A stretch of DNA of 64,000 nucleotides from Chloroflexaceae bacterium. GTDB taxonomy: Bacteria > Chloroflexota > Chloroflexia > Chloroflexales > Chloroflexaceae. The DNA lies in the NCBI GenBank assembly GCA_028282325.1, contig JANQID010000050.1:1820-65819 (forward strand). Reading direction: 5' to 3'. The translations under genes and the position numbers were made by a program. Positions within the stretch are counted from its first letter, which is position 1. Each line of letters opens with the position of its first letter. Shown here in pieces: positions 993 to 46,493 of the stretch. The notes under the pieces are model-generated. The model saw only the letters and a list, made by a program, of their open reading frames with translations, ran no database searches and was not told the origin of the DNA.

Positions 993-1457
993 TTCTTTCG
1001 CTCCTACTTAATTAATGCTCTTCACGGATGCATAACGCTTGGGTTCACTGGCTGCCCACACGCAACCTGACCTAAAAGCGAGGTTGGAGTACAAACACCG
1101 GCTTGATTATACACCAACTCCGCCAGCAAGGTTACTTTCAATGCAGCCTCTGCGTCTCCGCGTGTCACCGTGTCGGTGCGTCGAAACTTACTCCAGCCCC
1201 AACGCGCGATATACGGCTCCGGCGGGGGTGAGCGCGCTCTGGAACATGAGCGGAATCGCCCCCAACCCACCGCGCATTTGCATTCAATCCAAAGCGATCG
1301 TACCATGCGCCCACGCAAATAGTCGCAGAGCAAGCACCGACGCAGGGTCACGCCGCGCAGCCGAGCAGGCGCGGCACATCTGGCGGCATCCAGATGCGTG
1401 GGCCGATCGCACTGCTTGTCGCTGCATAAACTCGTGTGGCATCCCGGGGAGGTTGAT

Positions 1458-3668: not shown

Positions 3669-4004
3669 AACGGGCTTGCACTGTGACGGACGCAGTCCAG
3701 GCTGCCGGCGGTTCGCGGATGCTTTTGCGTCTATCGGCAACCGGCCCGGTCTTTGCAGTCGTCAAGCGAGTTTGCCCGTCTAGTTGTCTCGCTATAACCA
3801 GTAGTTGCGTTTTTATAACTATGCCCAAGTATGATATATGCTATAGTTAAAATTAATCATTCCTAACATCTGTAAGCATGAGCTTGGCGCGGTGATCAAT
3901 ACCTTCCTCTCCGCGCAGTGGTTCGGACATCTGTTGTTCCGGGCTTGTGGCTCATCCTCAATGCTTATACACGATGTCTGCATAACCAAACCGAGATTGC
4001 TCAC

Positions 4005-4034
4005 AGCAAAGACGCAGAGATAGCAAAGACGCAG
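4005..4034 (+). repeat. tandem direct repeat AGCAAAGACGCAG x2 (17-nt period) in the hdrA leader
   Basis: Exact 13-mer at 4005-4017 and 4022-4034, about 80 nt upstream of the hdrA start. CAGAGAT (4015-4021) is also complementary to ATCTCTG (4052-4058). Confidence 0.6.
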
Positions 4035-4114
4035 CGCGCGTATGGTTTTGCATCTCTGGGTCTTTTTTGTTGGCATATTTTCGTTTCGGCCTAATTGCAC
4101 AATAGAGAGCCGGC

Positions 4115-7100
4115 ATGGATCAACGTACACACGATGTGCTTATCATTGGCGGCGGCATCAGCGGGATGCAGGCCGCACTCAATCTGGGCGACAAGGGCTA
4201 TAAGGTCGTCGTCGTCGATAAGCAGGCGAGCATCGGCGGCACGATGGTGAAGCTCGACAAGACCTTCCCGACGAATGATTGTTCGATCTGCATCGCTGCG
4301 CCGAAAATGGTCGAACTGGCGCGGCATCCGAATATCGATCTGTTGACCTACGCTCAGGTTGAGCAGGTCAGCGGCACCGCAGGCAATTTCCAGATTTCGA
4401 TCTGGCGGCGCACCAACTATGTCGATCCCGAAAAGTGTACCGGGTGCGGTGATTGTGCGAATGTGTGTCCGGTCGATGTTGTTGATACGTTCAACGCCGG
4501 GATGGCGAAACGCAAGGCGATCTATATCCAGTTTCCCCAGGCGGTGCCGTCTGTCTACACTATCGACTTCAAGCATTGCACCGGCTGTGGCTCCTGTGAC
4601 CGCGCCTGTATGGCGAAAGCCATCTTGTTTCTCAAGCCCTCGCGCGAGACGCGGCTCACGGTCGGCAGCATTATCGTTGCTACCGGCTTCGATGTGCTGG
4701 AGCCGGTTGAGATGCGCAAAGAATATGGCTATGGCAAGTACGCCAATGTGATCACTGCCTTGCAATACGAGCGCATTCTCTCAGCGTCGGGGCCGACCGC
4801 GGGCAAAATTCTGCGGCCTTCGGATGGCAAGCAGCCCGAACGGATCGCCTGGATCCAGTGCGTCGGCTCGCGCAGCGCCCAGAACGGCAACCCATATTGC
4901 TCGAAGATCTGCTGTATGTACGCTACGAAAGAAGCTGCAATCACAATCGACAGCCATCCTGACATCGACGCGGCGATCTTCTATATGGATCTGCGCGCGT
5001 ACGGCAAGGATTTCCAGCAGTATTATCGCCAGGCCGAGCGCAACGGCGTGCGCTACATTCGTGGGCGTCCGTCGAGCGTCTATGAGAACGCCGACCGCAG
5101 CCTGACGCTGGTCTACGAAAATACGCTCACCGGCGAGGCGCACGAGGAAGTCTTCGATATGGTTGTGCTCTCGACTTCGGTCGTTCCTTCGCCCGACAGC
5201 CGTCGGCTGGCGAATGTGCTCGGCGTCGCGATTGACGAGCACGGGTTTTTTGTTCAGCAAGATATGTTGCGTGATCCGCTGAAATCGACCCGTGACGGCG
5301 TTTTTCTCGCCGGCGGCGCGCAGGGGCCGAATGACATCCCCGACTCGGTGGCGCAGGCCAGCGGCGCGGCGGGACGAGCGGCGGCGGCGCTTCGTGATCG
5401 GCACGGCACGGTCGAGCGCAAGCAGGCCCCGGAGAAGGAGATCGATGGCGATGCGCCGCGTACCGGCGTGTTCGTGTGCAGTTGCGGCAAGAACATCGGC
5501 GGCTATGTCGATGTAGCCGATGTCACCGAATATGCCCGCGGCTTGCCCAACGTCATCTTCGCTGGCGAGTATCTGTTCGCTTGCTCCGAGGATGCGCAAC
5601 GCCGAATTAAAGAGGCGATTCAGGTGTATGACCTCAACCGTGTGGTGGTCGCCGCCTGCTCGCCGATCACCCACGGCGGCGTGTTTCAGCAGACGTGCGA
5701 GGAAGCCGGCATCAACCAGAATCTGTTTGATATGGCTAACATTCGCAACCAATGTTCGTGGGTGCATTCGCATGACCGCAACCGGGCGACGACGAAGTCG
5801 CGCGACCTGGTGCGTATGTCGGTTGCCAAATCTGCCCATCTGCGCCCGCTCTCGAATCGCGAGATCGGCGTGACCCGCGCCTGCCTGATCATCGGCGGCG
5901 GGATCGCCGGGATCAAGGCGGCGTTGACCACTGCCGAGATGGGCATCGATACGTATCTGGTTGAACGCGAGGCGGTGCTCGGCGGCAAGCTGCGCGATCT
6001 GTATACGCTCTATCCTGCCGACATTCCCGCCGGCGAAGCGCTTGGCCCGCTGGTGAGCGCGGTGGAGCGCCATGAGCGCATTCGGGTGTTTGTGAATTCA
6101 GAGGTGCGCACGGTTGACGGTTATATCGGCAACTTCCAGGTCGAGGTGCAATCGCGAGCCAGCGGCTTGACCGAACGCCTCGACATCGGCGCGATCATCG
6201 TCGCCACCGGTTTCCAGGAGGTCGATTTCGGCGGGCGCTATGGCTATGGCGAGCATCCCAATATCATCTCCCAGCTTGAACTTGAGCAGCGATTGCGCGC
6301 TGGCACGCTTGGCAATCCACGCACGGCGGTGATACTCAACTGCGCCGGGTCGATGGATGCGAGCAACCCGTCGTGTTGTCGCATCGGCTGCGGCGTGTCG
6401 GTCAAGAATATGCGCCGGATCCACGAAGTCGCGCCGAACGCACGTATGTTTTTGCTCTATCAAGATTTGCGCATGTTCGGCAAACAACAGGAAGAGTACT
6501 TCGCGGAGACGGTCAGACAGGTGCAGCCCTATCTGATCCGCTATGTCGCCGACCGACCGCCAAGCGTGCGCGTGCGCGGTGATCGCATCTTTGTGACGGT
6601 CTTCGACGTGCTGCTGCGCGACTATGTCGAGGTCGAGGCCGATCTGGTCGTGCTGACCACGGCGATGCGTGGCGACGCACGTACGCCGCAGCTCAAGCAG
6701 ATGCTCAAGGTCGCCGCCAACAGCGAGGATTTCTACAACGAAGCGCATGCGAAGATTCGCCCGCTTGACTTCGCCACCGATGGCGTGTATTTGTGCGGTT
6801 CGGCCCACTATCCCAAGAGCGTTCCGGACACAATCGCTCAAGCCGAAGGCGCCGCCTCGCGGGCGGCGATCCCGCTGCTGCGGGGCAAGGTTAGCACCGA
6901 GCCGATTATCGCCGAGATCGATGCCACGCATTGCGCCGGTTGCGGCATCTGCGTCACCCTCTGCCCGTATGGGGCGATCTCGATCAACGCCGAGCGCAGT
7001 GCGGCTGTTATCACCGACGTGATGTGCAAAGGATGTGGAACGTGCGTCGCGGCGTGTCCTTCCGGCGCAGCGCAGCAGCGCAACTTCACCGACCAGCAAC

Positions 7101-7132
7101 TGTTCGCGATGATCGAAACGGCGTGGGACTGA
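4115..7132 (+). CDS. hdrA: heterodisulfide reductase subunit A-like flavoprotein, tandem two-module form (QmoA-like + full HdrA/QmoB-like)
   Basis: 1005 aa. Module 1 (aa 1 to about 440) has DVLIIGGGISGMQAAL, FPTNDCSICI, an inserted ferredoxin domain (CTGCGDCANVCP, CTGCGSCDRAC) and CSKICC. Module 2 (from about aa 449) has the Cys-rich VFVCSCGKNIGG N-domain, a second dinucleotide motif LIIGGGIAGIKAAL and a C-terminal 2x[4Fe-4S] ferredoxin (CAGCGICVTLCP, CKGCGTCVAACP). Confidence 0.9.
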   Translation: MDQRTHDVLIIGGGISGMQAALNLGDKGYKVVVVDKQASIGGTMVKLDKTFPTNDCSICIAAPKMVELARHPNIDLLTYAQVEQVSGTAGNFQISIWRRTNYVDPEKCTGCGDCANVCPVDVVDTFNAGMAKRKAIYIQFPQAVPSVYTIDFKHCTGCGSCDRACMAKAILFLKPSRETRLTVGSIIVATGFDVLEPVEMRKEYGYGKYANVITALQYERILSASGPTAGKILRPSDGKQPERIAWIQCVGSRSAQNGNPYCSKICCMYATKEAAITIDSHPDIDAAIFYMDLRAYGKDFQQYYRQAERNGVRYIRGRPSSVYENADRSLTLVYENTLTGEAHEEVFDMVVLSTSVVPSPDSRRLANVLGVAIDEHGFFVQQDMLRDPLKSTRDGVFLAGGAQGPNDIPDSVAQASGAAGRAAAALRDRHGTVERKQAPEKEIDGDAPRTGVFVCSCGKNIGGYVDVADVTEYARGLPNVIFAGEYLFACSEDAQRRIKEAIQVYDLNRVVVAACSPITHGGVFQQTCEEAGINQNLFDMANIRNQCSWVHSHDRNRATTKSRDLVRMSVAKSAHLRPLSNREIGVTRACLIIGGGIAGIKAALTTAEMGIDTYLVEREAVLGGKLRDLYTLYPADIPAGEALGPLVSAVERHERIRVFVNSEVRTVDGYIGNFQVEVQSRASGLTERLDIGAIIVATGFQEVDFGGRYGYGEHPNIISQLELEQRLRAGTLGNPRTAVILNCAGSMDASNPSCCRIGCGVSVKNMRRIHEVAPNARMFLLYQDLRMFGKQQEEYFAETVRQVQPYLIRYVADRPPSVRVRGDRIFVTVFDVLLRDYVEVEADLVVLTTAMRGDARTPQLKQMLKVAANSEDFYNEAHAKIRPLDFATDGVYLCGSAHYPKSVPDTIAQAEGAASRAAIPLLRGKVSTEPIIAEIDATHCAGCGICVTLCPYGAISINAERSAAVITDVMCKGCGTCVAACPSGAAQQRNFTDQQLFAMIETAWD

Positions 7133-7165
7133 CTTGTAAACCTGCCAGGGTTCGCCAGGAAGACG

Positions 7166-7603
7166 ATGGCCGATATGGACGACACGTTCCAACCGAGAAT
7201 CATGGGCTTTTTGTGTAGCTGGTGCTCCTACTCCGGCGCTGATACGGCAGGCGTGAGCCGGATGCAGTACCCGCCGAATATTCGCATCATTCGTGTGATG
7301 TGTAGCGGACGGATCGAGCCGCTGCACGTGATGAAGGCGTTTGAGCAAGGAGCCGACGGCGTGCTGGTCTCCGGCTGTCATCCCGGCGATTGTCACTACG
7401 CAACGGGCAATTATTACACCCAACGCCGCTTTGCCGTTATGCGCCAGTTGCTCGACTTTTTCGGCATCGATCAGCGCCGCCTCAAACTGACCTGGGTTTC
7501 GGCGTCCGAAGGCGCGCGCTTCGCCGATATTGTCACCGCTATGACCGAGGAAATTCGTATGGTGGGTCCGCTCAATCTGCGCGCGAACCCTAAGGGTGTA
7601 TGA
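7166..7603 (+). CDS. mvhD: MvhD/FlxD-family protein (methyl-viologen-reducing hydrogenase delta subunit-like)
   Basis: 145 aa with FLCSWCSY...MCSGR...VSGCHPGDCHY, the characteristic MvhD Cys pattern. It starts 34 nt after hdrA. Confidence 0.9.
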   Translation: MADMDDTFQPRIMGFLCSWCSYSGADTAGVSRMQYPPNIRIIRVMCSGRIEPLHVMKAFEQGADGVLVSGCHPGDCHYATGNYYTQRRFAVMRQLLDFFGIDQRRLKLTWVSASEGARFADIVTAMTEEIRMVGPLNLRANPKGV

Positions 7604-7604
7604 G

Positions 7605-8558
7605 ATGACGGTTGTCAATGATCAATTGACGCTGATCCTGCGCGAGAAAGTGCATACGCTCTTCGCCGAGGGCGTCGCTGATGTCTTCATCGGCTATCGG
7701 CACGGCGGCAAGCCGCTCCGCGTCCAACCACACGTTGCCAGGAGTGCGGCCGATGCCGATCAACTGGTCTGGAATCCGACATGCATCAACAACCTCACCT
7801 CGACGCTCCACAAGTTCGCCGATATGCGCGTTGGCATTCTGGTCAAAGGTTGCGACTCGCGCGCGCTGGTTGAACTGATCAAACTGCGCCAGGTTCGACG
7901 TGATGGCGTTTACATCATCGGCGCGCCCTGTCCGGGGATTGTCGATCACGAACTGATCGCGCGGTCGGTTGATCCGGCGACGATTACGGACATTTTCGTG
8001 GAGGAAGCGCAGGTTATGCTCACGACCGACGCAGGCGAGATTACCCTCGACCCTGCGGACGCCCTCTACGCCAAATGCCTGACCTGCGCACAGCCGACGC
8101 CGGATCTGTACGACGAGCTGCTGGGCGACCCGATCGCGGTGCACCCGATACCGCTCGATGCTCGCTTCAACGCTGCGATCGAATTGGAGCAGCTTAGCGT
8201 TGCCGAGCGCTTCGCATTTTGGGACGAGCAGTTAAACAAGTGTACGCTCTGCTATGCCTGTCAGGCGGTCTGCCCGGTGTGCTTTTGCACAGCATGCGCT
8301 CTCGCATTGCCGCGCAACGATCCGAAGCGTAAGAATCGCGACCGCGAGAGCGTTTTCTCCTTCCATTTGATGCGTGCCTATCATATGACCGGTCGTTGCA
8401 TCGGGTGTTACGAGTGTGAGCGCGTCTGTCCGGTTGACATACCGTTGAGCGCGATTTTCCAGAAGGCGGAGAAAGAGTCGCGCGATCTGTTCGGCTACAA
8501 GGCGGGGAGCGATGTCGCTGCCGTACCGCCGTTGAGCACGTTTGGCGACAAGACATAA
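7605..8558 (+). CDS. 4Fe-4S dicluster protein, FlxB/FlxC / sulfhydrogenase-beta / AsrA-like
   Basis: The ORF-track start is GTG 7596, overlapping the mvhD stop. ATG 7605 has AAGGG 8 nt upstream. Motifs are CTLCYACQAVCPVCFC and CIGCYECERVCPVDIP (CPxCxC type), plus KGCDSRAL. Confidence 0.75.
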   Translation: MTVVNDQLTLILREKVHTLFAEGVADVFIGYRHGGKPLRVQPHVARSAADADQLVWNPTCINNLTSTLHKFADMRVGILVKGCDSRALVELIKLRQVRRDGVYIIGAPCPGIVDHELIARSVDPATITDIFVEEAQVMLTTDAGEITLDPADALYAKCLTCAQPTPDLYDELLGDPIAVHPIPLDARFNAAIELEQLSVAERFAFWDEQLNKCTLCYACQAVCPVCFCTACALALPRNDPKRKNRDRESVFSFHLMRAYHMTGRCIGCYECERVCPVDIPLSAIFQKAEKESRDLFGYKAGSDVAAVPPLSTFGDKT

Positions 8559-8575
8559 CGCGGGGAGTCTGCCTT

Positions 8576-8977
8576 ATGATCAAAATCACGGCCAGCGGCC
8601 GCCCGAACGAACTCCTGCGCAAGGCCGCGGCGCTCAGCGGGCAGGATCTTTTCGCCTGCTATCAATGCGGCACGTGCTCGGCGGGCTGTCCGATGGTCGC
8701 GGAGATGGATCTTTTGCCCGACCAACTGATACGCCACGTGCTGTTCGGAATGTCCGATGCGTTGGAGAGCACGGCGATCTGGGTGTGCGCGTCGTGCTAC
8801 CTCTGTGATGAACGTTGCCCGCGCGGCATCGATGTGTCAAAGATCATGGAAGCGTTGCGCCAGATCTGGCTACGCCAGAATGAAGATTACGTCCACGTAG
8901 CACAACTTCCTAAAGAGACGCTGGCGGAACTGCCGCCAATCGCTCTGGTGGCCAATTTCCGCAAGAATACGGGGTAA
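8576..8977 (+). CDS. hdrC: heterodisulfide reductase subunit C-like (2x[4Fe-4S])
   Basis: 133 aa with CYQCGTCSAGCP and CASCYLCDERCP, in typical HdrC spacing and length. Confidence 0.9.
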   Translation: MIKITASGRPNELLRKAAALSGQDLFACYQCGTCSAGCPMVAEMDLLPDQLIRHVLFGMSDALESTAIWVCASCYLCDERCPRGIDVSKIMEALRQIWLRQNEDYVHVAQLPKETLAELPPIALVANFRKNTG

Positions 8978-8982
8978 ACGGA

Positions 8983-9861
8983 ATGCATATCGATTACTAT
9001 CCAGGGTGTACCATCAAAGCCTCCGCCGGGCAATATGAGACATCGGTCAGGGCCGTGCTCGCGACGCTCGGCATCCAGATGAAGGAGATGGAGCAGTGGA
9101 ACTGCTGCGGCGTGGTTCACTCGCTGGCCAGCGATAACCTCATTCGCCACATCGCGCCGATTCGAGTGTTCGCCCGCCTTCAGGAGCAGGGCGGCAGCGA
9201 AATGCTGACGCTTTGCGATATGTGTTACAACACGCTGTCGCAGGCGAATCACCTGGTGCGCCAGAACGCGCGCCAGCGCGAGTCAATCAATGATTTTATC
9301 GAAGCCGAGGAAGATTACGATGGCGAAATTCACGTGCTGCATCTCTTACAAATCCTCCGTGACCGGGTGGGCTATCAGACAATCAAAAAACATGTTCGGC
9401 GCGCATTGCAAGGTTTAACGGTTTTTCCTTACTATGGTTGCAAGCTGCTCAGGCCGGGAGGGATGGGCATTGATGATCCGGAAGCCCCGCGCGTGCTGCG
9501 TGACCTGATGCATACGCTGGGCGCTGCGGTGGCGGATGACCCGTTGCAAACGCAATGCTGCGGTTCGTATCATATCGTCAACCACGATGAGATTGTGTCG
9601 CGACGGGTGGGCAAAATCGCCGCCCGCGCGCTGGAACGCGGCGCCGATGTGATTGTTCTCTCGTGCCCGCTGTGCCATTTCAACCTCGATACCCGGCAGG
9701 CTCTGGTCGATTCGCCGCTGCCGGTGTTGTATTTTACCCAACTGATGGGCGTCGCTTTTGGCCTGGATCTGGATGTGCTCGGCCTGAACCAGCACCATAT
9801 CGATCCCTTGATGCTGCTCCAGCAGCGCGGCTTTGTCCAGGAGGAGGAAGCATTGGTATGA
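8983..9861 (+). CDS. hdrB: heterodisulfide reductase subunit B-like (two CCG domains)
   Basis: 292 aa with YYPGC...WNCCG and YYGC...CCGS...CPLCHFNLD, the duplicated CCG-domain signature. Confidence 0.9.
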   Translation: MHIDYYPGCTIKASAGQYETSVRAVLATLGIQMKEMEQWNCCGVVHSLASDNLIRHIAPIRVFARLQEQGGSEMLTLCDMCYNTLSQANHLVRQNARQRESINDFIEAEEDYDGEIHVLHLLQILRDRVGYQTIKKHVRRALQGLTVFPYYGCKLLRPGGMGIDDPEAPRVLRDLMHTLGAAVADDPLQTQCCGSYHIVNHDEIVSRRVGKIAARALERGADVIVLSCPLCHFNLDTRQALVDSPLPVLYFTQLMGVAFGLDLDVLGLNQHHIDPLMLLQQRGFVQEEEALV

Positions 9862-10637
9862 TCGATCAACCCAGGGAAATCAACATCCAATTGATGGGCA
9901 AGGATTATAAGGTTTCGAGCGGTCTCACGATTATTGCCGCGATCGAATACGCCGGGTATAAATTGGTGCGTGGCGCGGGATGTCGCGCCGGATTCTGCGG
10001 CGCTTGCCCGACGCTCTATCGCAGAGCTGGGAGCCACAAGCTCTACACGGCGTTGGCTTGCCAGACCCTCGCCGAAGATGGAATGTGCCTGGTTCAGGTA
10101 CCCTTTGTTCCGGTTGTGCGGCGCCCCTACGACATCGAAGAGGTCGCCCCATCCGCAAATATCATCCTGCAATACTATCCCGAAGTTGCCGCATGCGTCT
10201 CGTGCAACACCTGCACACGCGCCTGTCCGCAGGGCATCTCGGTGATGGACTACATTCAGACGGCGTTGCGCGGCGATATTGAACAAACCGCGCTGCTCTC
10301 GTTCGATTGCATCTCCTGCGGTATTTGTTCAAGTCGCTGCCCGGCGGACATCAAGCATTACCCGGTTGGGCAACTGGCCCGCCGCATCTACAGCAAGTAT
10401 CTGCTGCCCAGGTCGAGTCAACTGGCCGATCGGCTTGACGAAATGGAGACCGAGCAGTGCGAAGTCGAGGTCGAAACGATGATGCACCTTTCAACCGAAG
10501 AGCTACGCGCACGCTACGAGCAACGCTCCTTCGAGACCGTCGCCGGGCGCGATCAGAAGCACAGCGCCATCCAGAAATGGGGCACGGCGGTTGATCCGGT
10601 TGACTACCGCGATGAAGTCGAAGAAGTGGCGTATTAG
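9858..10637 (+). CDS. SdhB/FrdB/TfrB-N-like iron-sulfur protein ([2Fe-2S] + 2 cubane motifs)
   Basis: The ORF-track start at 9663 lies inside hdrB. The in-frame ATG 9858 forms an ATGA overlap with the hdrB stop. Motifs are CRAGFCGAC...C (plant-type 2Fe-2S, Cx4Cx2C), CVSCNTCTRACP and CISCGICSSRCP. Confidence 0.85.
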   Translation: MIDQPREINIQLMGKDYKVSSGLTIIAAIEYAGYKLVRGAGCRAGFCGACPTLYRRAGSHKLYTALACQTLAEDGMCLVQVPFVPVVRRPYDIEEVAPSANIILQYYPEVAACVSCNTCTRACPQGISVMDYIQTALRGDIEQTALLSFDCISCGICSSRCPADIKHYPVGQLARRIYSKYLLPRSSQLADRLDEMETEQCEVEVETMMHLSTEELRARYEQRSFETVAGRDQKHSAIQKWGTAVDPVDYRDEVEEVAY

Positions 10638-10646
10638 GGGGCGACT

Positions 10647-12296
10647 ATGAAACTTATCAGAGGCTATCCCGAATATATGCGCAAAAGCATCAAACAGGTT
10701 GAACGCACCCGCCCAAACCGGCTCGAGCAAAGCATTCCTCCAATGAGCCTTGATGAACGCAAAGCTCTGCTGACCAAGTTTCACCCGGATTTTCGCGAGG
10801 ACCAAAAGCGCGCGCTGGCATGCGGGCCGAGCAAGGGCATGCGCATTCATCGCGAATTGGCCGACCTGCTCGAAGCGCAGCCGCTCGTGACCTCAACCCT
10901 CGATCTCAACCAGATCGACTTTGACGTTGATGTGTTGATCATCGGCGGCGGCGGTGCCGGGACGGTGGCGGCGCTCTGGGCAATGAAAGAAGGCATCGAT
11001 CCCAAGCGCATCCTGATTGTCACCAAGCTGCGCCACGGCGACTCGAACTCGACGATGGCCCAGGGCGGGATTCAGGCTGCCGACCGCCCCAACGACTCGC
11101 CGGCGACGCACTATCTCGACGTGATTGGCGGCGGCCACTTCACCAACCGCGCCGATTTGGTCAAGGCGCTGGTGATGGATGCGCCGTCGATTATCGCCTG
11201 GCACGAGAGTCTGGGCATGATGTATGACAAAGACGCGGACGGTAACTTTGTCGAAAATCCTGGCGGCGGCACTTCGCGCAATCGAATGCACTCGGCGAAA
11301 GATTACACCGGCCTGGAAATCATGCGCGTTTTGCGCGACGAGGCTCGCAATGCCGGCATACCGGTGGTCGAGTTCGCCCCGGCTATCGAATTGCTGATGG
11401 ACGACCGGGGGCGCGTCGCGGGCGCGGTGTTGCTGAACCTGGAAACAAAGAAGTACCGCATTGTCAAAGCGCAGGCGACCATTTTGACGACCGGCGGGTT
11501 GGGGCGCCTGCATATGCAGCAGTTCCCGACGACCAACCACTATGGCGCAACCGGCGATGGCCTGGTGCTGGCCTATCGCGTCGGGGCGGAGTTGATCGAT
11601 CTGGACGCGATCCAATATCATCCGACCGGCGCAGCGTTTCCGGCTCAGATGGCGGGATTGTTGATTACCGAGAAGGTGCGCGGAATGGGCGCGCAGCCGG
11701 TGAACAAAGACGGTGAGTTGTTCGTTTTCCCGCTCGAACCGCGCGATGTTGAGTCGTCGGCGTTTATTCGCGAATGCTACGAACGCGAACTGGGCATCGA
11801 AACGCCGCAAGGTATGCGCGGCGTCTGGCTCGATTCGCCGATGGTTGATATGCTGCACGGGCCGGGCACGATCGAGGCGTCACTGCCGGCGATGTTCCGT
11901 ATGTATCAGCGCTTCGGCGTTGATATGACCCGCGATCCAATCCTGGTCTTTCCGACGTTGCACTATCAGAACGGAGGCGTTGTCGCCGATGAGCGCGGCG
12001 CGACCAACGTGCCGGGGTTGTATGTCGCCGGCGAGGTGATGGGCGGCATTCACGGGAAAAACCGCCTGATGGGCAACTCGCTGCTCGATTTCAACGTTTT
12101 TGGGCGTCGCGCTGGTATCGCCGCTGCGAACTACGCGCGACAGGCGATCGCCGGCAAGCTCTCGCTGGCCCACGTCGAGGAATACAAACGCCAGTTGCGC
12201 GATGCCGGTATCGATAATGATCACGCCGCGCCGCAAATTTTGCCCGAATATCGCGGCCAGGAAGCGCTGGAACGGATGCTGGACATTCCAATTTAG
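10647..12296 (+). CDS. FAD flavoprotein of the succinate dehydrogenase / fumarate reductase / L-aspartate oxidase superfamily
   Basis: 549 aa with DVLIIGGGGAGTVAAL, SNSTMAQGGIQAA (no His for covalent FAD), IQYHPTG, LITEKVRGMGA, HYQNGGV and GLYVAGEVMGGIHGKNRLMGNSLLDFNVFGRRAG. A roughly 90-aa N-terminal extension precedes the FAD motif. Confidence 0.85.
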   Translation: MKLIRGYPEYMRKSIKQVERTRPNRLEQSIPPMSLDERKALLTKFHPDFREDQKRALACGPSKGMRIHRELADLLEAQPLVTSTLDLNQIDFDVDVLIIGGGGAGTVAALWAMKEGIDPKRILIVTKLRHGDSNSTMAQGGIQAADRPNDSPATHYLDVIGGGHFTNRADLVKALVMDAPSIIAWHESLGMMYDKDADGNFVENPGGGTSRNRMHSAKDYTGLEIMRVLRDEARNAGIPVVEFAPAIELLMDDRGRVAGAVLLNLETKKYRIVKAQATILTTGGLGRLHMQQFPTTNHYGATGDGLVLAYRVGAELIDLDAIQYHPTGAAFPAQMAGLLITEKVRGMGAQPVNKDGELFVFPLEPRDVESSAFIRECYERELGIETPQGMRGVWLDSPMVDMLHGPGTIEASLPAMFRMYQRFGVDMTRDPILVFPTLHYQNGGVVADERGATNVPGLYVAGEVMGGIHGKNRLMGNSLLDFNVFGRRAGIAAANYARQAIAGKLSLAHVEEYKRQLRDAGIDNDHAAPQILPEYRGQEALERMLDIPI

Positions 12297-12299
12297 CAG

Positions 12300-12319
12300 G
12301 GGCGAAACCTCTTTCGCCC
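12300..12319 (+). terminator. GGGCGAAA-CCTC-TTTCGCCC hairpin, 4 nt after the flavoprotein stop
   Basis: 8-bp perfect stem. It is one of three copies of the GGCGAAA-NNNN-TTTCGCC motif in this window. No T-run follows, so terminator function is uncertain. Confidence 0.4.
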
Positions 12320-12388
12320 GCCATTGCGCCAGGGTCGAAGGAAGATGAGGCTATACGACGGACATTCGAGCGAATACGAGATGAGCTT

Positions 12389-12616
12389 ATGCATATGTTC
12401 ACAGTAACAATCAATGACAACTGGTGCAAAGGGTGCGAACTCTGCATTCTGTTCTGCCCGGTGAAGGCGCTGAAGCTATCGGAACACCTCAACAAACGCG
12501 GCATTCACCCGCCCGAAATGCTGCCGGTGAACACGTGCAACGGATGTCGCTTGTGCGAACTCGTCTGTCCTGATTTCGCGGTTACGGTAGAGGAGGGCGT
12601 CATCGTCAATGGATAG
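12389..12616 (+). CDS. korD: 2-oxoacid:ferredoxin oxidoreductase delta (ferredoxin-like) subunit
   Basis: 75 aa with CKGCELCILFCP and CNGCRLCELVCP. An alternative ATG lies at 12395. It overlaps korA by 8 nt. Confidence 0.85.
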   Translation: MHMFTVTINDNWCKGCELCILFCPVKALKLSEHLNKRGIHPPEMLPVNTCNGCRLCELVCPDFAVTVEEGVIVNG

Positions 12617-13772
12617 AAATCTGATTCGCAAAGCCCTGGGGGCAAAGGTGCAGTTTATTCAAGGCGATGAGGCATGCGCCTATGGTGCGCTCCTGGCCGG
12701 ATGCACCTTCTTCGGCGGCTACCCGATCACCCCTGCCACCGAAGTGGCCGAAGTGATGGCCCGGCTGCTGCCCAAAATCGGCGGCTGCTACATCCAGATG
12801 GAAGATGAAATCGCAAGCATTGCGGCGATCATCGGCGCAAGCTGGACCGGCGCCAAAACGATGACTTCGACTTCCGGGCCGGGCTTTTCGCTGATGCAGG
12901 AAAATCTGGGCTACGGGATTATGACCGAGACGCCCTGCGTGATTATCAACGTCCAGCGCTCCGGGCCATCGACCGGGCAGCCGACGCTCGGCGCCTACGG
13001 CGATATGATGCAGGCGCGCTGGGGCACCCACGGCGACCATGAAATCATTATGCTGTGCCCGGCGAATGTGCAGGAATCGCTCGACCTGACGATCACCGCG
13101 TTCAATTTCGCCGAACGCTATCGCACGCCGGTACTGGTATTCATCGATGGCGAGCTTGGTCATATGCGTGAGCGGGTGATTATTCCCGAAGACGACGAGA
13201 TCGCGATTGTCAATCGCACGATCAGCAACGTCTCTCCCGACGAATATGTCCCGTTCGGCGTAAATGGCGACCTGGTTCCCGCGTTTGCGCCATTTGGCGC
13301 TGGCTATCACACCTACGTCACCGGGCTGACCCACAACGAACAGGGGTTGCCCCGCGCATCGAGCGCGGAGGTGCATAACCGATTGGTGCGCCGTCTGGCC
13401 GATAAGATCCTGAACAACACCGATGACATTGTGTTGTATGAAGAGCTCGAAACCGACGACTGCGAGATTTTGCTCGTCAGCTATGGGATTACAGCCGGCG
13501 TCTGCCGGGACGTGGTCGCAACCGCGCGCCAGCGCGGCGTCAAAGTCGGTATGCTGCGGTTGATCACCATCTGGCCGTTCGCCGAAGAAGCCGTGGCCCG
13601 TCTGGCGCAACAGGTGCGCATGATGATTGTGTCGGAAATGAATATGGGCCAGATCATCCACCCTATTCGCGAAGCCGTGGCCGGTCGCTGCGATGTTCGG
13701 TTAATCTCGAAGATTGGCGGCGCTTTGCATATGCCGGCGGAAATTATGGAGGCTGTCGAACAATGGCGATGA
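12609..13772 (+). CDS. korA: 2-oxoglutarate/2-oxoacid:ferredoxin oxidoreductase alpha subunit
   Basis: 387 aa with GDEACAYGALLAGCTFFGGYPITPATE and TSTSGPGFSLMQENLGY, typical of OFOR alpha subunits. Confidence 0.9.
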   Translation: MDRNLIRKALGAKVQFIQGDEACAYGALLAGCTFFGGYPITPATEVAEVMARLLPKIGGCYIQMEDEIASIAAIIGASWTGAKTMTSTSGPGFSLMQENLGYGIMTETPCVIINVQRSGPSTGQPTLGAYGDMMQARWGTHGDHEIIMLCPANVQESLDLTITAFNFAERYRTPVLVFIDGELGHMRERVIIPEDDEIAIVNRTISNVSPDEYVPFGVNGDLVPAFAPFGAGYHTYVTGLTHNEQGLPRASSAEVHNRLVRRLADKILNNTDDIVLYEELETDDCEILLVSYGITAGVCRDVVATARQRGVKVGMLRLITIWPFAEEAVARLAQQVRMMIVSEMNMGQIIHPIREAVAGRCDVRLISKIGGALHMPAEIMEAVEQWR

Positions 13773-14617
13773 AGCAAGCCGAAGATCTGCGCGAAAAATA
13801 TCTGCGCCAGTCGATGTTTCCGACCATTTTCTGCGATGGATGCGGCATCGGCAATGTGTTGAACTACACGCTCTGGGCGATCGACGAGATAGAATTGGAC
13901 ATCGACCGCACGGTTTTTGTGTCAGGCATCGGCTGCTCATCGCGCCTGACTGGGTATGTGAATGCCGATGGCCTGCACACCACCCATGGGCGGGCGCTGG
14001 CCTTCGCCACCGGCGTGAAGGTTGCCAATCCTGACCTGACCGTGATCGTCTTCACCGGCGATGGCGATGGATCGGGCATCGGCGGCAACCACCTGCTGCA
14101 TACCATCCGGCGCAACATCGATATGACCGTCATTCTGGTGAACAACTACACCTACGGCATGACCGGCGGTCAGGTCGCGCCGACGACGCCGATGGGCAGT
14201 ATTACCACTACCACTCCCTATGGGAACTCCGAGTGGCCGTTAGATGTATGCGAGGTGGCGCGGGCGCTCGGCGCGCCTTACGTTGCACGCTGGCCGGTGA
14301 CGTTTCCCTATCAGCCGATCAAGTCGATTGAACAGGGCATTCGCAAGCGCGGGTTTGCCCTGATCGAGATGCTCGCGCCTTGCCCTACGGCCTATGGTCG
14401 GCGCAACAACCTTCGAGCGCTGGATCAAAGCTGGAAGTGGTACAAAGATCACTCGCTCCTCGTGGAAGAATACGAGCGGATCGAGCGCTTCGGAACCGAC
14501 GCCGAACGTGCAACGCTGCAAGGCAAGATCAAGGTCGGCGTTTTCCAGGACAGCGAGCGGGAGTGCTTCTCCGACCAATGGCGCGCGGTGGTGGAACGGG
14601 TGAAGCTGAAAGCGTGA
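13763..14617 (+). CDS. korB: 2-oxoacid:ferredoxin oxidoreductase beta (TPP-binding) subunit
   Basis: 284 aa with FCDGCGIG, GIGCSSR, FTGDGDGSGIGGNH and LVNNYTYGMTGGQ (TPP and FeS motifs). It overlaps korA by 10 nt. Confidence 0.9.
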   Translation: MAMKQAEDLREKYLRQSMFPTIFCDGCGIGNVLNYTLWAIDEIELDIDRTVFVSGIGCSSRLTGYVNADGLHTTHGRALAFATGVKVANPDLTVIVFTGDGDGSGIGGNHLLHTIRRNIDMTVILVNNYTYGMTGGQVAPTTPMGSITTTTPYGNSEWPLDVCEVARALGAPYVARWPVTFPYQPIKSIEQGIRKRGFALIEMLAPCPTAYGRRNNLRALDQSWKWYKDHSLLVEEYERIERFGTDAERATLQGKIKVGVFQDSERECFSDQWRAVVERVKLKA

Positions 14618-14680
14618 TGATGTCGGGGGAATAGCCCGCATCATCTTTATCATCATCTGGCGAGTAGCGAGAGTGAGCCT

Positions 14681-15259
14681 ATGCGTCAAGAAATCAGAAT
14701 TTGCGGCTTTGGCGGCCAGGGCGTGGTTACGGCGGCGGTTATTCTTGGTAAGGCGGCGGCGGTATTCGACAACCTCGTCGCTACGCAAACCCAGTCCTAT
14801 GGTCCGGAGGCGCGCGGCGGCGCAGCCAAAGCCGAGGTCGTGATCTCCGACGGGCCGATTGGCTTTCCGGCAGTTGTCGCTGCTGACGTGCTGGCGGCAA
14901 TGTCTCAAGAAGCCTTCAACAAATATAAACAGGATGTCAAAATCGATGGTGTCATCATCGTAGACCCCGACCTGGTGATCGATCATCACGCCGACCAGCC
15001 GATATATTGCGTTCCGGCAACCCGCATCGCCGAGGAGTTGGGCAACCCAATCGTCGCCAACATCGTAATGATCGGCGCTCTCACCGCTGTCGCCCATCCA
15101 GTGTCGTGGGATGCCATCCTCGCCTCAACGCTGGAAAGCGTCCCCGCGCGTTTCAAAGATCTGAACCAGCGCGCCCTGGAGACCGGATTTGAAGCCGGAC
15201 AGGCGGTAGCCTCAGGCAACGGGCGCGCTGCTGCTTCGGTAGATCGTGATTCACGCTGA
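14681..15259 (+). CDS. korC: 2-oxoacid:ferredoxin oxidoreductase gamma subunit
   Basis: 192 aa with IRICGFGGQGVVTAAVILG and QSYGPEARGGAAKAEV. The D-A-B-C gene order matches the oor/kor-type enzymes. Confidence 0.9.
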   Translation: MRQEIRICGFGGQGVVTAAVILGKAAAVFDNLVATQTQSYGPEARGGAAKAEVVISDGPIGFPAVVAADVLAAMSQEAFNKYKQDVKIDGVIIVDPDLVIDHHADQPIYCVPATRIAEELGNPIVANIVMIGALTAVAHPVSWDAILASTLESVPARFKDLNQRALETGFEAGQAVASGNGRAAASVDRDSR

Positions 15260-15509
15260 CGATTCTCTTATCCCATTCAATATTGCAGATATGAAGTCTC
15301 TACTTGCTGTTTAGCGCATCGCTGGCAGGAGGAATGCTGACGATGCGCGATGAGATTGTACAGTTTTACCTAATAGTAATGCCGCGTTAATTCTGATACA
15401 ACGTGCCTGTGCTACAATAGCTATCACCATACCGTATCTCGTTCTATATATCACAACTACGCATATACACAAGGGTATATGCTCATAGCCTGAGCAATGT
15501 GATAGCTGT

Positions 15510-18101
15510 ATGTTATATTGGCAACTGAATGCCTATATCTTAGCGTTGCTTATTTCTAGCATCCTATCCATAACAGCATCGATATATGTCTGGCAACGGC
15601 GTTTGGTCGTTGGCGCGGCGCCTCTGGCGCTGCTGATGATGGCAGCGGCCGAGTGGTCGTTGACCTATGCGCTGGAACTGGCCAATCCTTATCTAGAAGC
15701 TAAAATCTTCTGGGCCAGGATGCAATATTTTGGCATTGTCGGCGTCGTGGTTCTGCTCTTTGTAGTGGTTGTTCAGTACACAGGCCGCGAACGCTGGCTG
15801 ACCAGGCTCAACATTGCTGCGCTTGCCTCTGTGCCGCTGATCTCGTTGGCGCTGGTCTGGACCAATGACTTCCACGGATTGATCTGGAATGATATTAGCC
15901 TGGCCGCAGATGCTGCTTTCCCCGTGCTCGAGCTTGGTCACGGGCCGTTCTTCTGGGTTCTTATCATCTACTCATACCTCGTGCTGGTATTTGTGATACT
16001 GCTGCTATTCCCGCTGACGCTGGGCGCGGCACGCCCATATCGGGCCCAGTCCAGCGTGATGTTGGCCGGAATGTTTGCGCCCTGGGCCGGGAATGTCATT
16101 TACATCTTTGATCTCAGCCCGTTTCCCTATCTGGATCTGACGCCGTTCGCGTTTACTTTTTCCGGTCTGGCGGCGGTCTGGGGGTTGTTTCGCTTTCGGT
16201 TGCTCGATATCGTGCCGGCAGCTCGCGATATGGTTGTCGATAGCATCGAGTACGGCGTTATTGTATTGGATGACAAAGGGCGAATCGTCGATGCCAACGT
16301 TGCGGCCCAGCAATGGCTTGGACGGACGAGCGAAAATATTATTGGACAATCGACGCGGCAAGTTTTTGCATCCCGCCCCGACCTGTTCGCACGTTTTCGC
16401 CATGTCGCCAAAACCCAGACTGAGCTAGTGATTGAGAGCGAAGGCGCGCCCCGCTATTACGATCTCACGATTTCCCCGTTGCGTGATCGGCGCGGTAAAT
16501 TGAGCGGGCGGGTGTTGCTGATCCACGACATTACGCAGCGTAAAAACACCGAGCAGGCGTTGCGCGAGAGCGAGGAGCGCTCTCGCCGTCTGGTTGAGCT
16601 TTCACCCGAAGCGATCGTTGTTCTTAACGATTGCACGTTCGTCTATACAAACTCGTCTGGATTGCGCCTGTTCGGCGCTGCCAGCCTTGATGAGCTGATT
16701 GGAAAATCGCTGCTTGACCGGGTTGATCCCACTTGTCGCAAACTGGTTTCCATCAGTATCGAACAGTCGATGCAGCAACACATCGCCGCACCCCTGATTG
16801 AATACACATTGCTGCGGTTGGATGGCCAACCGTTCGAGGCCGAAGTCACCGCCACGATGACAACATATCAAGGCAAGTCGGCGATACAGGCGATCATTCG
16901 TGACATTACCGAACGCAAACGAGCCGATCAGCAACTCCGCGATTATCAAGCCCGGTTAGAGGAACAGAATGACGAGCTGCGCAAGCTTTCTCAGGCGATT
17001 GAGCAGAGCGCCAACTCGGTTGTCATTACCGACACGAACGGATATATCGAATACGTCAACCCTCGATTTATCGCCGTCACCGGCTACACTGCGGCGGAAT
17101 CGCTAGGACGCAACCCGCGGTTCTTGAAGTCCGGCGAGCACGATGCAGCGATCTATCGCGACTTATGGCAGACAATCAAGGCTGGGCAGATATGGCAAGG
17201 CGAATTCCACAATCGCCGCAAGGACGGAACGCTGTACTGGGAGATGTCAACTATAGCTCCCGTGTATGATAATGCAGGCCGGATTATGAACTTCATCGCG
17301 ATCAAGGAGGATATTACCGAGCGCAAAGAGGCCGAAGCGACGTTGCGCCACTACACGAGCGAACTGGAGAAGCGCAATGCCGAGCTTGACGCATTCGCCC
17401 ATACCGTCGCCCATGATCTGAAAAATCCGCTGACCGGGTTGCTCGGCTATATTCGATTGATGGAAATGCAGCTAAGTGAGACTTCCCAGGATCAGCAACG
17501 CGAATATTTGCAGATGCTGTCGCGCAGCGGGCAGAGGATAAAAAACATCATTAACGAGTTGCTCCTTTTGTCTAGCGTGCGCGAGATGGAGTCTATCGAG
17601 ACGTATGCATTGGATATGGCTGATATTGTGGATGAAGTTGTGGAGCGCCTGGAGTTCTTGATCGATCGATATCAGGCCGAAATCATTCGCCCCGATAGCT
17701 GGCCGATCGCACTAGGTTATGGTCCCTGGATCGAAGAGGTCTGGACCAATTACCTTAGCAATGCTTTGAAGTATGGCGGCTCGCCGCCGCGCATTGAATT
17801 GGGCGGCGACATCACCGAGAGTGGTGCAGTGTGTTACTGGGTGCGCGACAATGGCGAGGGTCTATCGCCCGAAGAGCAGGCGCGCCTGTTTACGCCGTTC
17901 GAGCGGATGCACAAGGTGCGCGCTGAAGGTCATGGCCTGGGGCTATCGATCGTGCGGCGCATTATGGAGAAGCTCGGCGGTCAGGTCGGCGTAGAAAGCG
18001 GCAAAGGTCAAGGCAGTACATTTTTCTTCATCTTGCCGTCGATTCATGGCGTTGAGGAACCGCGCTCGTTCGCCGCTGTGGTCGGTCAGCCCGATGTGTG
18101 A
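15510..18101 (+). CDS. sensor histidine kinase (N-terminal multi-TM domain, about 3 PAS domains, HisKA, HATPase_c)
   Basis: 863 aa. The first roughly 230 aa hold about 7 hydrophobic helices. PAS-like repeats follow (IHDITQRK, IRDITERK, IKEDITERK), then the H-box FAHTVAHDLKNPL and G-boxes DNGEGL and GHGLGLSIV. Confidence 0.9.
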   Translation: MLYWQLNAYILALLISSILSITASIYVWQRRLVVGAAPLALLMMAAAEWSLTYALELANPYLEAKIFWARMQYFGIVGVVVLLFVVVVQYTGRERWLTRLNIAALASVPLISLALVWTNDFHGLIWNDISLAADAAFPVLELGHGPFFWVLIIYSYLVLVFVILLLFPLTLGAARPYRAQSSVMLAGMFAPWAGNVIYIFDLSPFPYLDLTPFAFTFSGLAAVWGLFRFRLLDIVPAARDMVVDSIEYGVIVLDDKGRIVDANVAAQQWLGRTSENIIGQSTRQVFASRPDLFARFRHVAKTQTELVIESEGAPRYYDLTISPLRDRRGKLSGRVLLIHDITQRKNTEQALRESEERSRRLVELSPEAIVVLNDCTFVYTNSSGLRLFGAASLDELIGKSLLDRVDPTCRKLVSISIEQSMQQHIAAPLIEYTLLRLDGQPFEAEVTATMTTYQGKSAIQAIIRDITERKRADQQLRDYQARLEEQNDELRKLSQAIEQSANSVVITDTNGYIEYVNPRFIAVTGYTAAESLGRNPRFLKSGEHDAAIYRDLWQTIKAGQIWQGEFHNRRKDGTLYWEMSTIAPVYDNAGRIMNFIAIKEDITERKEAEATLRHYTSELEKRNAELDAFAHTVAHDLKNPLTGLLGYIRLMEMQLSETSQDQQREYLQMLSRSGQRIKNIINELLLLSSVREMESIETYALDMADIVDEVVERLEFLIDRYQAEIIRPDSWPIALGYGPWIEEVWTNYLSNALKYGGSPPRIELGGDITESGAVCYWVRDNGEGLSPEEQARLFTPFERMHKVRAEGHGLGLSIVRRIMEKLGGQVGVESGKGQGSTFFFILPSIHGVEEPRSFAAVVGQPDV

Positions 18102-20132: not shown

Positions 20133-20287
20133 AGTTGACTCAGTATAGCATACGATAGAATGGTCGGCAGATCATACGACGAACGGCGGCGCTCGAATGT
20201 TTCAGCGTGGTATCATAGCGCCTGCCAGAGCCTGTTTGCATAGAAGACGGGCTCGGTCTCAAGCGTTCATCATACGAAGGAGTGGTT

Positions 20288-23827: not shown

Positions 23828-24850
<1,023 letters not shown>

Positions 24851-24890
24851 GCGCCGGTTCGCGAGCCGCCGCGTCCTTTCAATCGGGGTT

Positions 24891-25805: not shown

Positions 25806-25813
25806 CCGCGTGT

Positions 25814-26320: not shown

Positions 26321-26322
26321 CT

Positions 26323-46431: not shown

Positions 46432-46493
46432 GAAATAGCCGATAGTGTCGATAGCCGATGTTCGACAGACTGATTGTGTCACAGAGCGTTGCG

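Follow-up and report, generated by a model that had tools for sequence, protein, structure and literature searches.

Gene clusters that bring heterodisulfide reductase (Hdr) genes together with those of a soluble fumarate reductase (Frd) and, in some cases, a 2-oxoacid:ferredoxin oxidoreductase (Kor) have been described before. In tubeworm symbionts (Endoriftia and the Escarpia symbiont) and in Thioflavicoccus mobilis, korABCD and tfrAB are interspersed with flxABCD-hdrABC, and the electron flow proposed for them is the same as the one considered here (Rubin-Blum 2019; PMC6315080). Genes of this cluster are co-expressed as an operon in Endoriftia (Mitchell 2024; PMC11636981), and a 2026 survey still treats the bifurcating cluster as a suggestion (PMC13147460). 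The second close counterpart is the 'succinate operon' of Pseudoclostridium thermosuccinogenes, a cultured succinate producer, where FlxABCD-HdrABC has a fumarate reductase of two subunits and a fumarase as neighbours; Koendjbiharie and co-workers proposed an NADH-dependent enzyme that reduces ferredoxin along with fumarate, and expression of the operon is about 4-fold higher under CO2 limitation (PMC7282089). The present analysis concerns a 64-kb stretch of the genome of a Chloroflexaceae bacterium (contig JANQID010000050.1; the whole stretch is referred to below as the window), which carries eleven genes in the order hdrA-mvhD-flxC-hdrCB-frdBA-korDABC. On balance, these genes appear to make up one conserved operon-like unit of three cooperating modules. 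As the best explanation of the unit we favour, with modest confidence, an Hdr-linked soluble Frd that would bifurcate electrons to ferredoxin for a 2-oxoglutarate Kor.

A first-pass annotation of this DNA had placed an eleven-gene cluster at 4115-15259 of the + strand, and the open reading frames (ORFs) are found at exactly these coordinates, all co-directional and tightly packed. The features of the locus are as follows.

3669..4114, + strand: upstream non-coding region, 446 nt, with an AT-rich stretch at ~3800-3870 (sequence inspection)
4115-7132, + strand: tandem HdrA, 1005 aa (NCBIfam HdrA2 and alignment to 5odc_A)
7166-7603, + strand: MvhD/FlxD/ElpC-type [2Fe-2S] connector, 145 aa (Pfam FlpD, E = 1.4e-55)
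7596-8558, + strand: FlxC/ElpB/FdhB-like iron-sulfur protein, 320 aa (phmmer, Foldseek, weak PF04432)
8576-8977, + strand: HdrC-like 2x[4Fe-4S] subunit, 133 aa (NCBIfam CoB_CoM_SS_C, 80 bits, below cutoff)
8983-9861, + strand: HdrB-like subunit, 292 aa (Pfam CCG, twice)
9858-10637, + strand: FrdB/SdhB/TfrB-N-like subunit, 259 aa (motifs, Pfam, NCBIfam)
10647-12296, + strand: FrdA/TfrA-like flavoprotein, 549 aa (Pfam FAD_binding_2, NCBIfam TfrA as best match, AlphaFold2 model)
12389-12616, + strand: KorD/OorD-type 2x[4Fe-4S] delta subunit, 75 aa (NCBIfam OGOR_delta, 61 bits, below cutoff)
12609-13772, + strand: KorA alpha subunit, 387 aa (NF006412, 569 bits, above the cutoff of 411)
13763-14617, + strand: KorB beta subunit, binding thiamine pyrophosphate (TPP), 284 aa (Pfam TPP_enzyme_C; 2-oxoglutarate ferredoxin oxidoreductase beta, 245 bits, below cutoff)
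14681-15259, + strand: KorC gamma subunit, 192 aa (Pfam POR; NF006323, 213 bits against a cutoff of 235)

In gene order the junctions measure +33, -8, +17, +5, -4, +9, +92, -8, -10 and +63 nt, the widest gap being 92 nt and the longest overlap 10 nt, and the ATG of the FrdB-like gene overlaps the hdrB stop codon as ATGA. Profile hidden Markov model annotation, recommended at the first pass, was run on all eleven proteins; the Pfam and NCBIfam assignments fit every gene and agree with the labels given then. The non-coding region at 3669..4114 is a possible promoter region for the operon. A scan of 3500-15700 for consensus promoters and terminators found nothing in that region or in the gaps 12297-12388 and 14618-14680, with counts at chance level that are uninformative on operon structure, and an Rfam scan of the whole window found no family.

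Comparison of component lists and block order shows that the tubeworm symbiont and T. mobilis cluster shares frdB, frdA, hdrC, hdrB, korDABC, hdrA, flxD and flxC with the window, together with the same proposed logic, i.e. bifurcation that leads to fumarate reduction and provides ferredoxin for 2-oxoglutarate:ferredoxin oxidoreductase (OGOR). Its block order hdrC-hdrB-korDABC-hdrA-flxD is also found in two of the loci compared below (L053 and L056). In contrast to that cluster, the window has no flxB or flxA, possesses a tandem HdrA of 1005 aa, differs in gene order and does not have its cluster among acl, idh and pnt. The succinate operon of P. thermosuccinogenes, which is likened to the window by description only, possesses the full set of Flx genes and lacks Kor, unlike the window. 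The claim made at the first pass that the gene combination matches no known architecture does not hold, since flx-hdr-tfr-kor clusters (PMC6315080) and the succinate operon (PMC7282089) have been published. The accompanying hypothesis, fumarate-driven bifurcation at HdrA feeding OGOR, is consistent with the conserved synteny and with neighbours from the same branch of the tricarboxylic acid (TCA) cycle, but it is not novel, as the same hypothesis is already in print (PMC6315080).

The same eleven-gene order is found in three independent Chloroflexales metagenome-assembled genomes (MAGs; L005, L009 and L010) and in part in a fourth (L006), with 47-81% protein identity. Flanking genes are unrelated between the window and the L005, L009 and L010 loci, and the boundaries of the eleven genes are conserved in Chloroflexales; because the genes outside the cluster differ from locus to locus, the cluster is a discrete conserved unit. 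The synteny search that had been advised also showed that the set of modules recurs across phyla. With the order recurring in Chloroflexales MAGs and the modules co-occurring across many phyla, the eleven-gene arrangement is far beyond chance.

The flavoprotein belongs to a family present in at least 588 bacterial and archaeal species-representative genomes; the loci compared here are the best 80 of these at least 588, all of them MAGs. Identity to the flavoprotein is 57-81% across Bacteria and Archaea, and the best 120 database proteins (65-81% identity) extend from Chloroflexales to Methanofastidiosa, Theionarchaea, Asgard archaea and Thermoplasmata. Among the matches listed for a further protein search, started from the homologue labelled Eubacteriales, the named ones belonged to Aminicenantes, WOR-3 or Thermoplasmatota. 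The window proteins were searched by tblastn over 82 distinct loci, with MvhA and MvhG of an Asgard locus and FlxA and FlxB of loci L008 and L070 as added queries. An FrdB-like gene lies directly upstream of the flavoprotein gene in 81 of the 82 loci, the exception being a contig that ends early. Among the 41 loci with full flanks (at least 6 kb upstream and at least 4 kb downstream of the core), the FrdB-like gene is present in all 41, HdrB and HdrC in 36, HdrA in 35, MvhD in 32, KorA/B/C in 25, the MvhAG hydrogenase in 18 and a FlxC-like protein in 11 (FlxCBA in 7, FlxC alone in 4).

The remaining neighbour ORFs were clustered without prior assumptions to find recurrent families. Setting aside a protease for hydrogenase, an ATPase of an ABC transporter and a regulator, the commonest were class I fumarase (alpha subunit in 15 loci, beta subunit in 11), succinyl-CoA synthetase (SucC in 12, SucD in 8), malic enzyme (9) and glutamate dehydrogenase (5). 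The metabolic enzymes in this set flank fumarate reduction and 2-oxoglutarate synthesis, which is the strongest evidence here in support of a fumarate/succinate flavoenzyme and a 2-oxoglutarate Kor.

Alignment of the flavoprotein with E. coli SdhA (1nek_A) shows that the dicarboxylate site is kept in full: the HPT His, Thr-Glu, the catalytic Arg, the second His and the Arg of NRLxGNSL. The residues of the fumarate/succinate site and of proton transfer are invariant in 16 members of the family. The His that carries covalent flavin adenine dinucleotide (FAD) in SdhA is replaced by Asn, and FAD is presumably bound non-covalently. The AlphaFold2 (AF2) model (pTM 0.80) most closely resembles FrdA of E. 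coli and SdhA of M. smegmatis in fold, ahead of NadB. The best NCBIfam match is TfrA (NF004900), with 325.6 bits where the cutoff is 718 and with only positions 6-426 of the 546 in the model matched; SdhA/FrdA and then NadB models follow (Sdh 273 bits, NadB 270 bits). All of these scores are below cutoff, and the protein belongs to none of the curated NCBIfam families. Pfam FAD_binding_2 spans residues 95-479 only, the Succ_DH_flav_C domain is absent (no PF02910 match), and an N-terminal extension of 91 aa shows conservation in Bacteria as well as in Archaea, many of its positions being invariant. AlphaFold assigns this extension (10647-10925, residues 1-93) a pLDDT of about 80-95, and docking to HdrB or FrdB is conceivable.

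The FrdB-like subunit contains a plant-type [2Fe-2S] motif (C-x4-C-x2-C-x17-C) and two CxxCxxCxxxCP motifs, and its 12 cluster cysteines are invariant in 77 of 77 homologues. Each of the dicluster motifs has four cysteines, which leaves no [3Fe-4S] motif of the classical complex II type, and Pfam and NCBIfam find no CCG domain in the subunit itself. Both sequence and fold bear out the first-pass view of the flavoprotein and its iron-sulfur partner as a pair that is Sdh/Frd-like rather than Apr-like. Classical complex II (SdhABCD/FrdABCD) was rejected: there is no anchor gene in the cluster, the FAD His is Asn, and neither a [3Fe-4S] motif nor PF02910 is present.

In the HdrC-like subunit, 8 of 8 cysteines are invariant in 55 of 55 homologues. 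Its match to the qmoC model (62 bits) covers only the soluble part (positions 7-104 of 360), the membrane part of QmoC being absent. Both CCG motifs of HdrB, at which non-cubane [4Fe-4S] clusters are held, are complete, with 10 of 10 motif cysteines invariant in 59 of 59 homologues, and the protein is matched by the NCBIfam models for HdrB (150 bits), SdhE (135 bits) and the C-terminal part of TfrB (24 bits). The FrdB-like, HdrC-like and HdrB-like proteins each match a different segment of the TfrB model NF004898.

Among named families, TfrAB of Methanothermobacter comes nearest to the flavoprotein. Its TfrB subunit unites [2Fe-2S], dicluster and HdrB-like CCG domains, all of which are present in the window, and both TfrAB and the window enzyme would be soluble and act in the reductive branch to 2-oxoglutarate, alongside Kor. 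The window enzyme differs in its low-scoring flavoprotein with an N-terminal extension and no C-terminal domain, in a 'TfrB' that is split over three proteins with one extra dicluster domain, in its link to HdrA and MvhD, and in its type of host, mostly without coenzyme M (CoM) and coenzyme B (CoB). We lean, if only slightly, towards regarding flavoprotein, FrdB-like and HdrB/HdrC-like subunits together as a soluble Frd/Sdh of a distinct, very widespread Tfr-like family (a 'split TfrB'). Type E succinate:quinone reductases and methylmenaquinol:fumarate reductases (SdhABE, FrdABEF) also combine a flavoprotein, an iron-sulfur subunit and an HdrB-like CCG subunit, and the SdhE model matches the window HdrB; in contrast to these membrane-associated, quinone-linked enzymes, the window shows no sign of quinone coupling and has HdrA and MvhD partners. 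A parallel to Hdr-like FrdCDE subunits in Hydrogenobacter was considered and dropped, as the subunit masses tabulated for Aquifex (59.5, 53.3 and 19.4 kDa) lend it no support.

The tandem HdrA scores 1041 bits with NCBIfam HdrA2, below the cutoff of 1100. Aligned with HdrA of M. thermolithotrophicus (5odc_A), its residues 8-378 correspond to 146-517, 447-618 to 3-174 and 860-1002 to 504-648. The FAD domain, into which a 2x[4Fe-4S] ferredoxin domain is inserted, makes up the first half (428 bits for residues 8-378). The second half consists of the HdrA N-terminal domain, another FAD domain, which has diverged and lacks the insert, and the ferredoxin domain of the C-terminus. Since the two halves together hold each HdrA domain once plus a second FAD domain, the protein reads as a fused, differentiated pseudo-dimer, with a domain split reminiscent of QmoA/QmoB. 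Full-length homologues of ~1000 aa are found in Chloroflexales and in many Thermoplasmata loci. Five cysteines of MvhD are kept in 40-41 of 42 homologues. Relative to MvhAGD-HdrABC of hydrogenotrophic methanogens, the HdrA, HdrB, HdrC and MvhD homologues of the window have all cofactor motifs; the differences are the lack of a hydrogenase and a high-potential acceptor that would be fumarate, via the attached Frd, and not CoM-S-S-CoB.

KorDABC is predicted to be a four-subunit 2-oxoacid:ferredoxin oxidoreductase with TPP and 2x[4Fe-4S] domains. KorA has its PDB matches in 1yd7_A (6.7e-142), the 2-oxoglutarate synthase alpha subunit 8ys5_A (1.2e-74) and OGOR 6n2n_A (3e-65). Specificity for 2-oxoglutarate is suggested by the context of SucCD, glutamate dehydrogenase and Frd, by the Oor/Kor models and by the OGOR relatives in the PDB.

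The FlxC-like protein is probably the electron-input arm, an iron-sulfur and flavoprotein. Its phmmer matches in the PDB are 9t1s_M (5e-30), ElpB (8rvu_E, 1.5e-26) and FdhB (7bkb_E, 1.3e-24), and Foldseek with an AF2 model of pLDDT 90.3 returns 7bkb_E (TMq 0.77) and 8rvu_E (TMq 0.75), then proteins of the FrhB family. PF04432 is matched weakly by the window protein (19.2 bits against a cutoff of 23.3) and by 31 of 37 relatives. Sixteen cysteines are invariant or nearly so among homologues, which would suffice for four [4Fe-4S] clusters, as many as are reported for ElpB; in Elp-Hdr, ElpB takes hydride from the reduced coenzyme F420 (F420H2) at its FAD (PMC12350162). In the Elp and Fdh complexes an ElpB/FdhB-type subunit feeds HdrA via an MvhD-type protein (PMC12350162), and the window MvhD and FlxC-like protein would together constitute an arm of the ElpC plus ElpB type. 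Both complexes, Elp-Hdr and Fdh-Hdr-Fmd (PMC12350162; 8rvu, 7bkb), are also those nearest to the window iron-sulfur protein in sequence and predicted structure, with the same pairing to an MvhD/ElpC-type protein beside HdrA. Differing from them, the cluster holds no ElpA or FdhA gene, and its iron-sulfur protein is 60-90 residues shorter.

Relatives of the cluster differ in this arm. Many sister clusters carry MvhAG between MvhD and HdrC, and in most relatives that bear FlxC the FlxC-like gene is followed by FlxB and FlxA of the NAD(P)H type, the former with Fer4_22 and the latter with FAD_binding_6, NAD_binding_1 and DHODB_Fe-S_bind. FlxA and FlxB were found in L008, L036, L041, L047, L053, L054, L070, L076 and L081. 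MvhAG or FlxCBA fills the same slot after MvhD, and the input arm is therefore modular. Only FlxC is retained in the window and in its closest relatives (L005, L006, L009, L010 and L011), and the Chloroflexaceae MAG L008 still has FlxCBA before hdrC. In the L008 locus a gene for a Uma2-family putative endonuclease (L008:3974-4750) is inserted between mvhD and flxC. In the Thermoplasmatota MAG L036 a single frdBA-korDABC core is surrounded by three paralogues of the tandem HdrA, two MvhD, one additional HdrB and a FlxCBA arm, which suggests several alternative bifurcation modules serving one fumarate reductase.

FlxD (MvhD), a FlxC-like protein, HdrA, HdrB and HdrC are shared by the window and FlxABCD-HdrABC of Desulfovibrio vulgaris, a system reportedly described by Ramos in 2015; the window differs from it in having no FlxA or FlxB, and in having Frd and Kor as partners instead of alcohol dehydrogenase and DsrC. 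Because versions with MvhAG and with FlxA are common in relatives, the absence of hydrogenase and FlxA from the window probably represents a lineage-specific reduction. The donor could then be F420H2 or another hydride donor acting at the FlxC-like subunit, or a partner encoded elsewhere. There are two weak hints of F420 use: a luciferase-like (LLM-class) oxidoreductase gene at 20282-21103 on the + strand, whose best NCBIfam matches are all F420-dependent subfamilies (TIGR03560, 203 bits, cutoff 231), and the documented F420 production in Chloroflexi (PMC8498797). A speculative and rather unlikely extension is that in this Chloroflexales lineage the ElpB-like subunit has taken the place of the FlxAB/MvhAG input by oxidising F420H2, or another hydride carrier, directly. 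This would make the complex a bacterial Elp-type, F420-dependent, fumarate-driven, ferredoxin-bifurcating enzyme coupled stoichiometrically, and perhaps physically, to 2-oxoglutarate synthase.

Starting from the observed gene content, cofactor motifs, dicarboxylate site, conserved synteny and TCA-branch neighbours, we infer that the modules associate physically, that electrons are bifurcated and wired directly through HdrB, which way they flow, which donor supplies them and that Kor is specific for 2-oxoglutarate. The bifurcation module would consist of the tandem HdrA and MvhD, fed by an interchangeable arm, which in relatives would be MvhAG (for H2) or FlxCBA (for NAD(P)H). Electron pairs would pass from the input arm via MvhD to the HdrA FAD, where one electron would run downhill through HdrC, HdrB, the FrdB-like subunit and FAD to fumarate, and the other would be pushed uphill to ferredoxin. 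One two-electron ferredoxin would be made per fumarate reduced (1:1), and this output would equal the need of Kor for carboxylating the succinyl-CoA made from the same succinate to 2-oxoglutarate (SucCD plus Kor). With textbook potentials of -320 mV for NADH, about +30 mV for fumarate and about -500 mV for ferredoxin, the reaction yields roughly -33 kJ per fumarate, and more with H2. In fermenters the system may run in reverse, succinate and reduced ferredoxin together driving reduction of the donor (confurcation).

Several observations weigh against this bifurcating scheme. Kor is missing in 16 of the 41 full-flank loci, and the Frd core occurs without HdrA in some lineages: in Methanofastidiosa (L001) and Theionarchaea (L012) it is a four-gene hdrC-hdrB-frdB-frdA unit with no HdrA or MvhD nearby. 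A bare frdB-frdA pair is found in the bacterial MAGs L039, L060, L065, L075 and L084, in several of them with glutamate dehydrogenase close by. The core without HdrA, and the two-gene core alone elsewhere, imply that it can work without bifurcation. The first-pass statement that hydrogenase and FlxA are lacking proved correct for the 64-kb window, in which tblastn found no FlxA, FlxB or MvhAG (with FlxA/FlxB queries from L008 and L070). The window also holds no sucCD or fumarase, and no TCA genes in its remainder. Models specific for 2-oxoglutarate are the best NCBIfam matches of Kor, yet all are below cutoff. A further locus, L004 (assembly of run SRR20820733, 99.6% identical to the window), has frameshifting deletions of 19 bp in hdrA (window 5021-5039) and 4 bp in the FlxC-like gene (window 8056-8059), which gene callers split in two each, with the frd and kor genes intact; the deletions may stem from faulty assembly, or the Hdr input side may be decaying at the level of strains. 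As of 2026, no biochemical proof for any member of the cluster was found in the literature.

Four other explanations were considered. Unlikely, in our view, is that Hdr and Frd are separate enzymes joined by a diffusible thiol/disulfide carrier, HdrABC reducing a disulfide by bifurcation with formation of reduced ferredoxin, and a Tfr-like enzyme re-oxidising the thiols with fumarate, an option proposed by Rubin-Blum et al. (PMC6315080). It agrees with TfrA as the best NCBIfam match of the flavoprotein, and with the retention in HdrB of both complete CCG motifs, the disulfide-reducing site in methanogen Hdr. A Tfr-like thiol reaction is plausible in Methanofastidiosa and Theionarchaea, in which the four-gene core is found by itself; Methanofastidiosa are described as a methyl-reducing methanogen lineage, and CoM and CoB would then be present. 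A few loci (L051, L036 and L079) even have two HdrCB pairs. In the window and in most loci, however, a single HdrCB pair would have to oxidise thiol and reduce disulfide as well, which renders the carrier redundant. Moreover, most host organisms are not methanogens, and no carrier protein (DsrC or lipoate protein) is conserved among the neighbours. Given a single HdrCB pair, and an FrdB-like subunit that in contrast to TfrB carries no CCG domain, electrons would more economically be wired directly through HdrB.

Similarly improbable is a wire without bifurcation, in which a low-potential donor (Kor ferredoxin, or F420H2 or NAD(P)H via the FlxC-like protein) would reduce fumarate, or succinate an acceptor, with HdrA as a mere relay, as has been argued for sHdrA of sulfur oxidisers. 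The window has no obvious hydride-donor module, non-bifurcating HdrA-like proteins exist, the second FAD domain is diverged here, and the Frd core can occur without HdrA. The PDB matches include 6tjr_A (349 residues, deposited as 'fumarate reductase/succinate dehydrogenase flavoprotein domain protein'), which we take to be a sulfur-oxidiser sHdrA. The first half of the window HdrA, on the other hand, is very close to the bifurcating methanogen HdrA and includes the inserted ferredoxin domain that is the low-potential exit. Furthermore, HdrA and MvhD co-occur with classical bifurcation arms (MvhAG, FlxABC) in most loci, and passing electrons from Kor ferredoxin straight to fumarate would waste about 0.5 V.

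It is quite improbable that the flavoenzyme acts on a different substrate, i.e. L-aspartate (NadB-like), mesaconate/methylsuccinate or another C4/C5 dicarboxylate, or a thiol-substituted succinate, with Kor as a general 2-oxoacid oxidoreductase. The scores below every NCBIfam cutoff, with NadB models near those of Sdh, would permit this, as would the unusual N-terminal extension and missing C-terminal domain of the flavoprotein and the Kor-specific models that remain below cutoff. Against it stand the neighbouring fumarase, SucCD, malic enzyme and glutamate dehydrogenase genes, as well as the succinate-making P. thermosuccinogenes, which has Flx-Hdr-Frd genes and fumarase in one operon (PMC7282089). 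NadB in particular was rejected, as the iron-sulfur partner subunit is typical of Frd/Sdh/Tfr and not found with NadB, and FrdA and SdhA are the best fold matches, ahead of NadB.

Gram-positive sulfate reducers are reported to have an aprBA-qmoAB-hdrCB arrangement. A corresponding role in sulfur metabolism, in which the tandem HdrA would be a QmoAB fusion (cf. its domain split), HdrCB would replace QmoC (cf. the qmoC match of HdrC) and the flavoprotein and its partner would be a divergent adenylylsulfate reductase, is effectively refuted, as the reported NCBIfam matches of the flavoprotein and the FrdB-like subunit include neither AprA nor AprB models (Tfr, Sdh and NadB being the best), sequence and fold of the flavoprotein match Frd/Sdh/Tfr, the iron-sulfur subunit has a [2Fe-2S] N-domain unlike AprB, HdrC is without the membrane part, and no sat or dsr occurs among the annotated window ORFs or the recurrent neighbour families of related loci.

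Other genes of the window include a 756-aa ORF directly upstream of the cluster (1398-3668, + strand), which in its C-terminal half is similar to the N-terminal region of PigE and of acyl-ACP reductases (NAD-binding). This ORF was considered as a donor module and rejected; it is probably unrelated to the cluster, because no homologue lies next to any of the 82 related loci. A histidine kinase of 863 aa with the architecture 7TM-PAS-PAS-PAS (15510-18101, + strand) starts 250 nt after korC and is not conserved beside the cluster in other Chloroflexales loci. Two separate gene sets of the MoxR AAA/VWA/BatA type, resembling an aerotolerance operon, are located at 23828-28248 (+ strand) and 41909-46482 (- strand).

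What appears not to have been stated before is the breadth of the family, its Mvh-linked archaeal version, the likeness of FlxC to ElpB, and the Chloroflexales variant with tandem HdrA and without FlxAB. Papers on WOR-3 and Thermoplasmatota MAGs annotate mvh/hdr, sdhAB and kor as separate items; as the parts are listed as unrelated, metabolic reconstructions may misread the locus. If the bifurcating Hdr-linked Frd proposed here is correct, the high-potential acceptors that power the reduction of ferredoxin, such as heterodisulfide and crotonyl-CoA, would gain a further member in fumarate, and this would apply to very many uncultured anaerobes, among them Asgard archaea, Thermoplasmata, Bathyarchaeia, Chloroflexota, Acetothermia, Thermotogae and WOR-3. 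The source of low-potential ferredoxin for 2-oxoglutarate synthase in the reductive TCA branch, which is listed as unresolved in the literature on the reductive TCA cycle, would be addressed as well, and the reverse reaction would account for the oxidation of succinate to fumarate by fermenters that form H2. The window contributes a reduced variant that has a tandem HdrA and no input arm but the ElpB-like one, and it brings the question of which electron donor is used into sharp focus; should the donor be F420H2, relatives of phototrophs with type II reaction centres would gain a route to low-potential ferredoxin.

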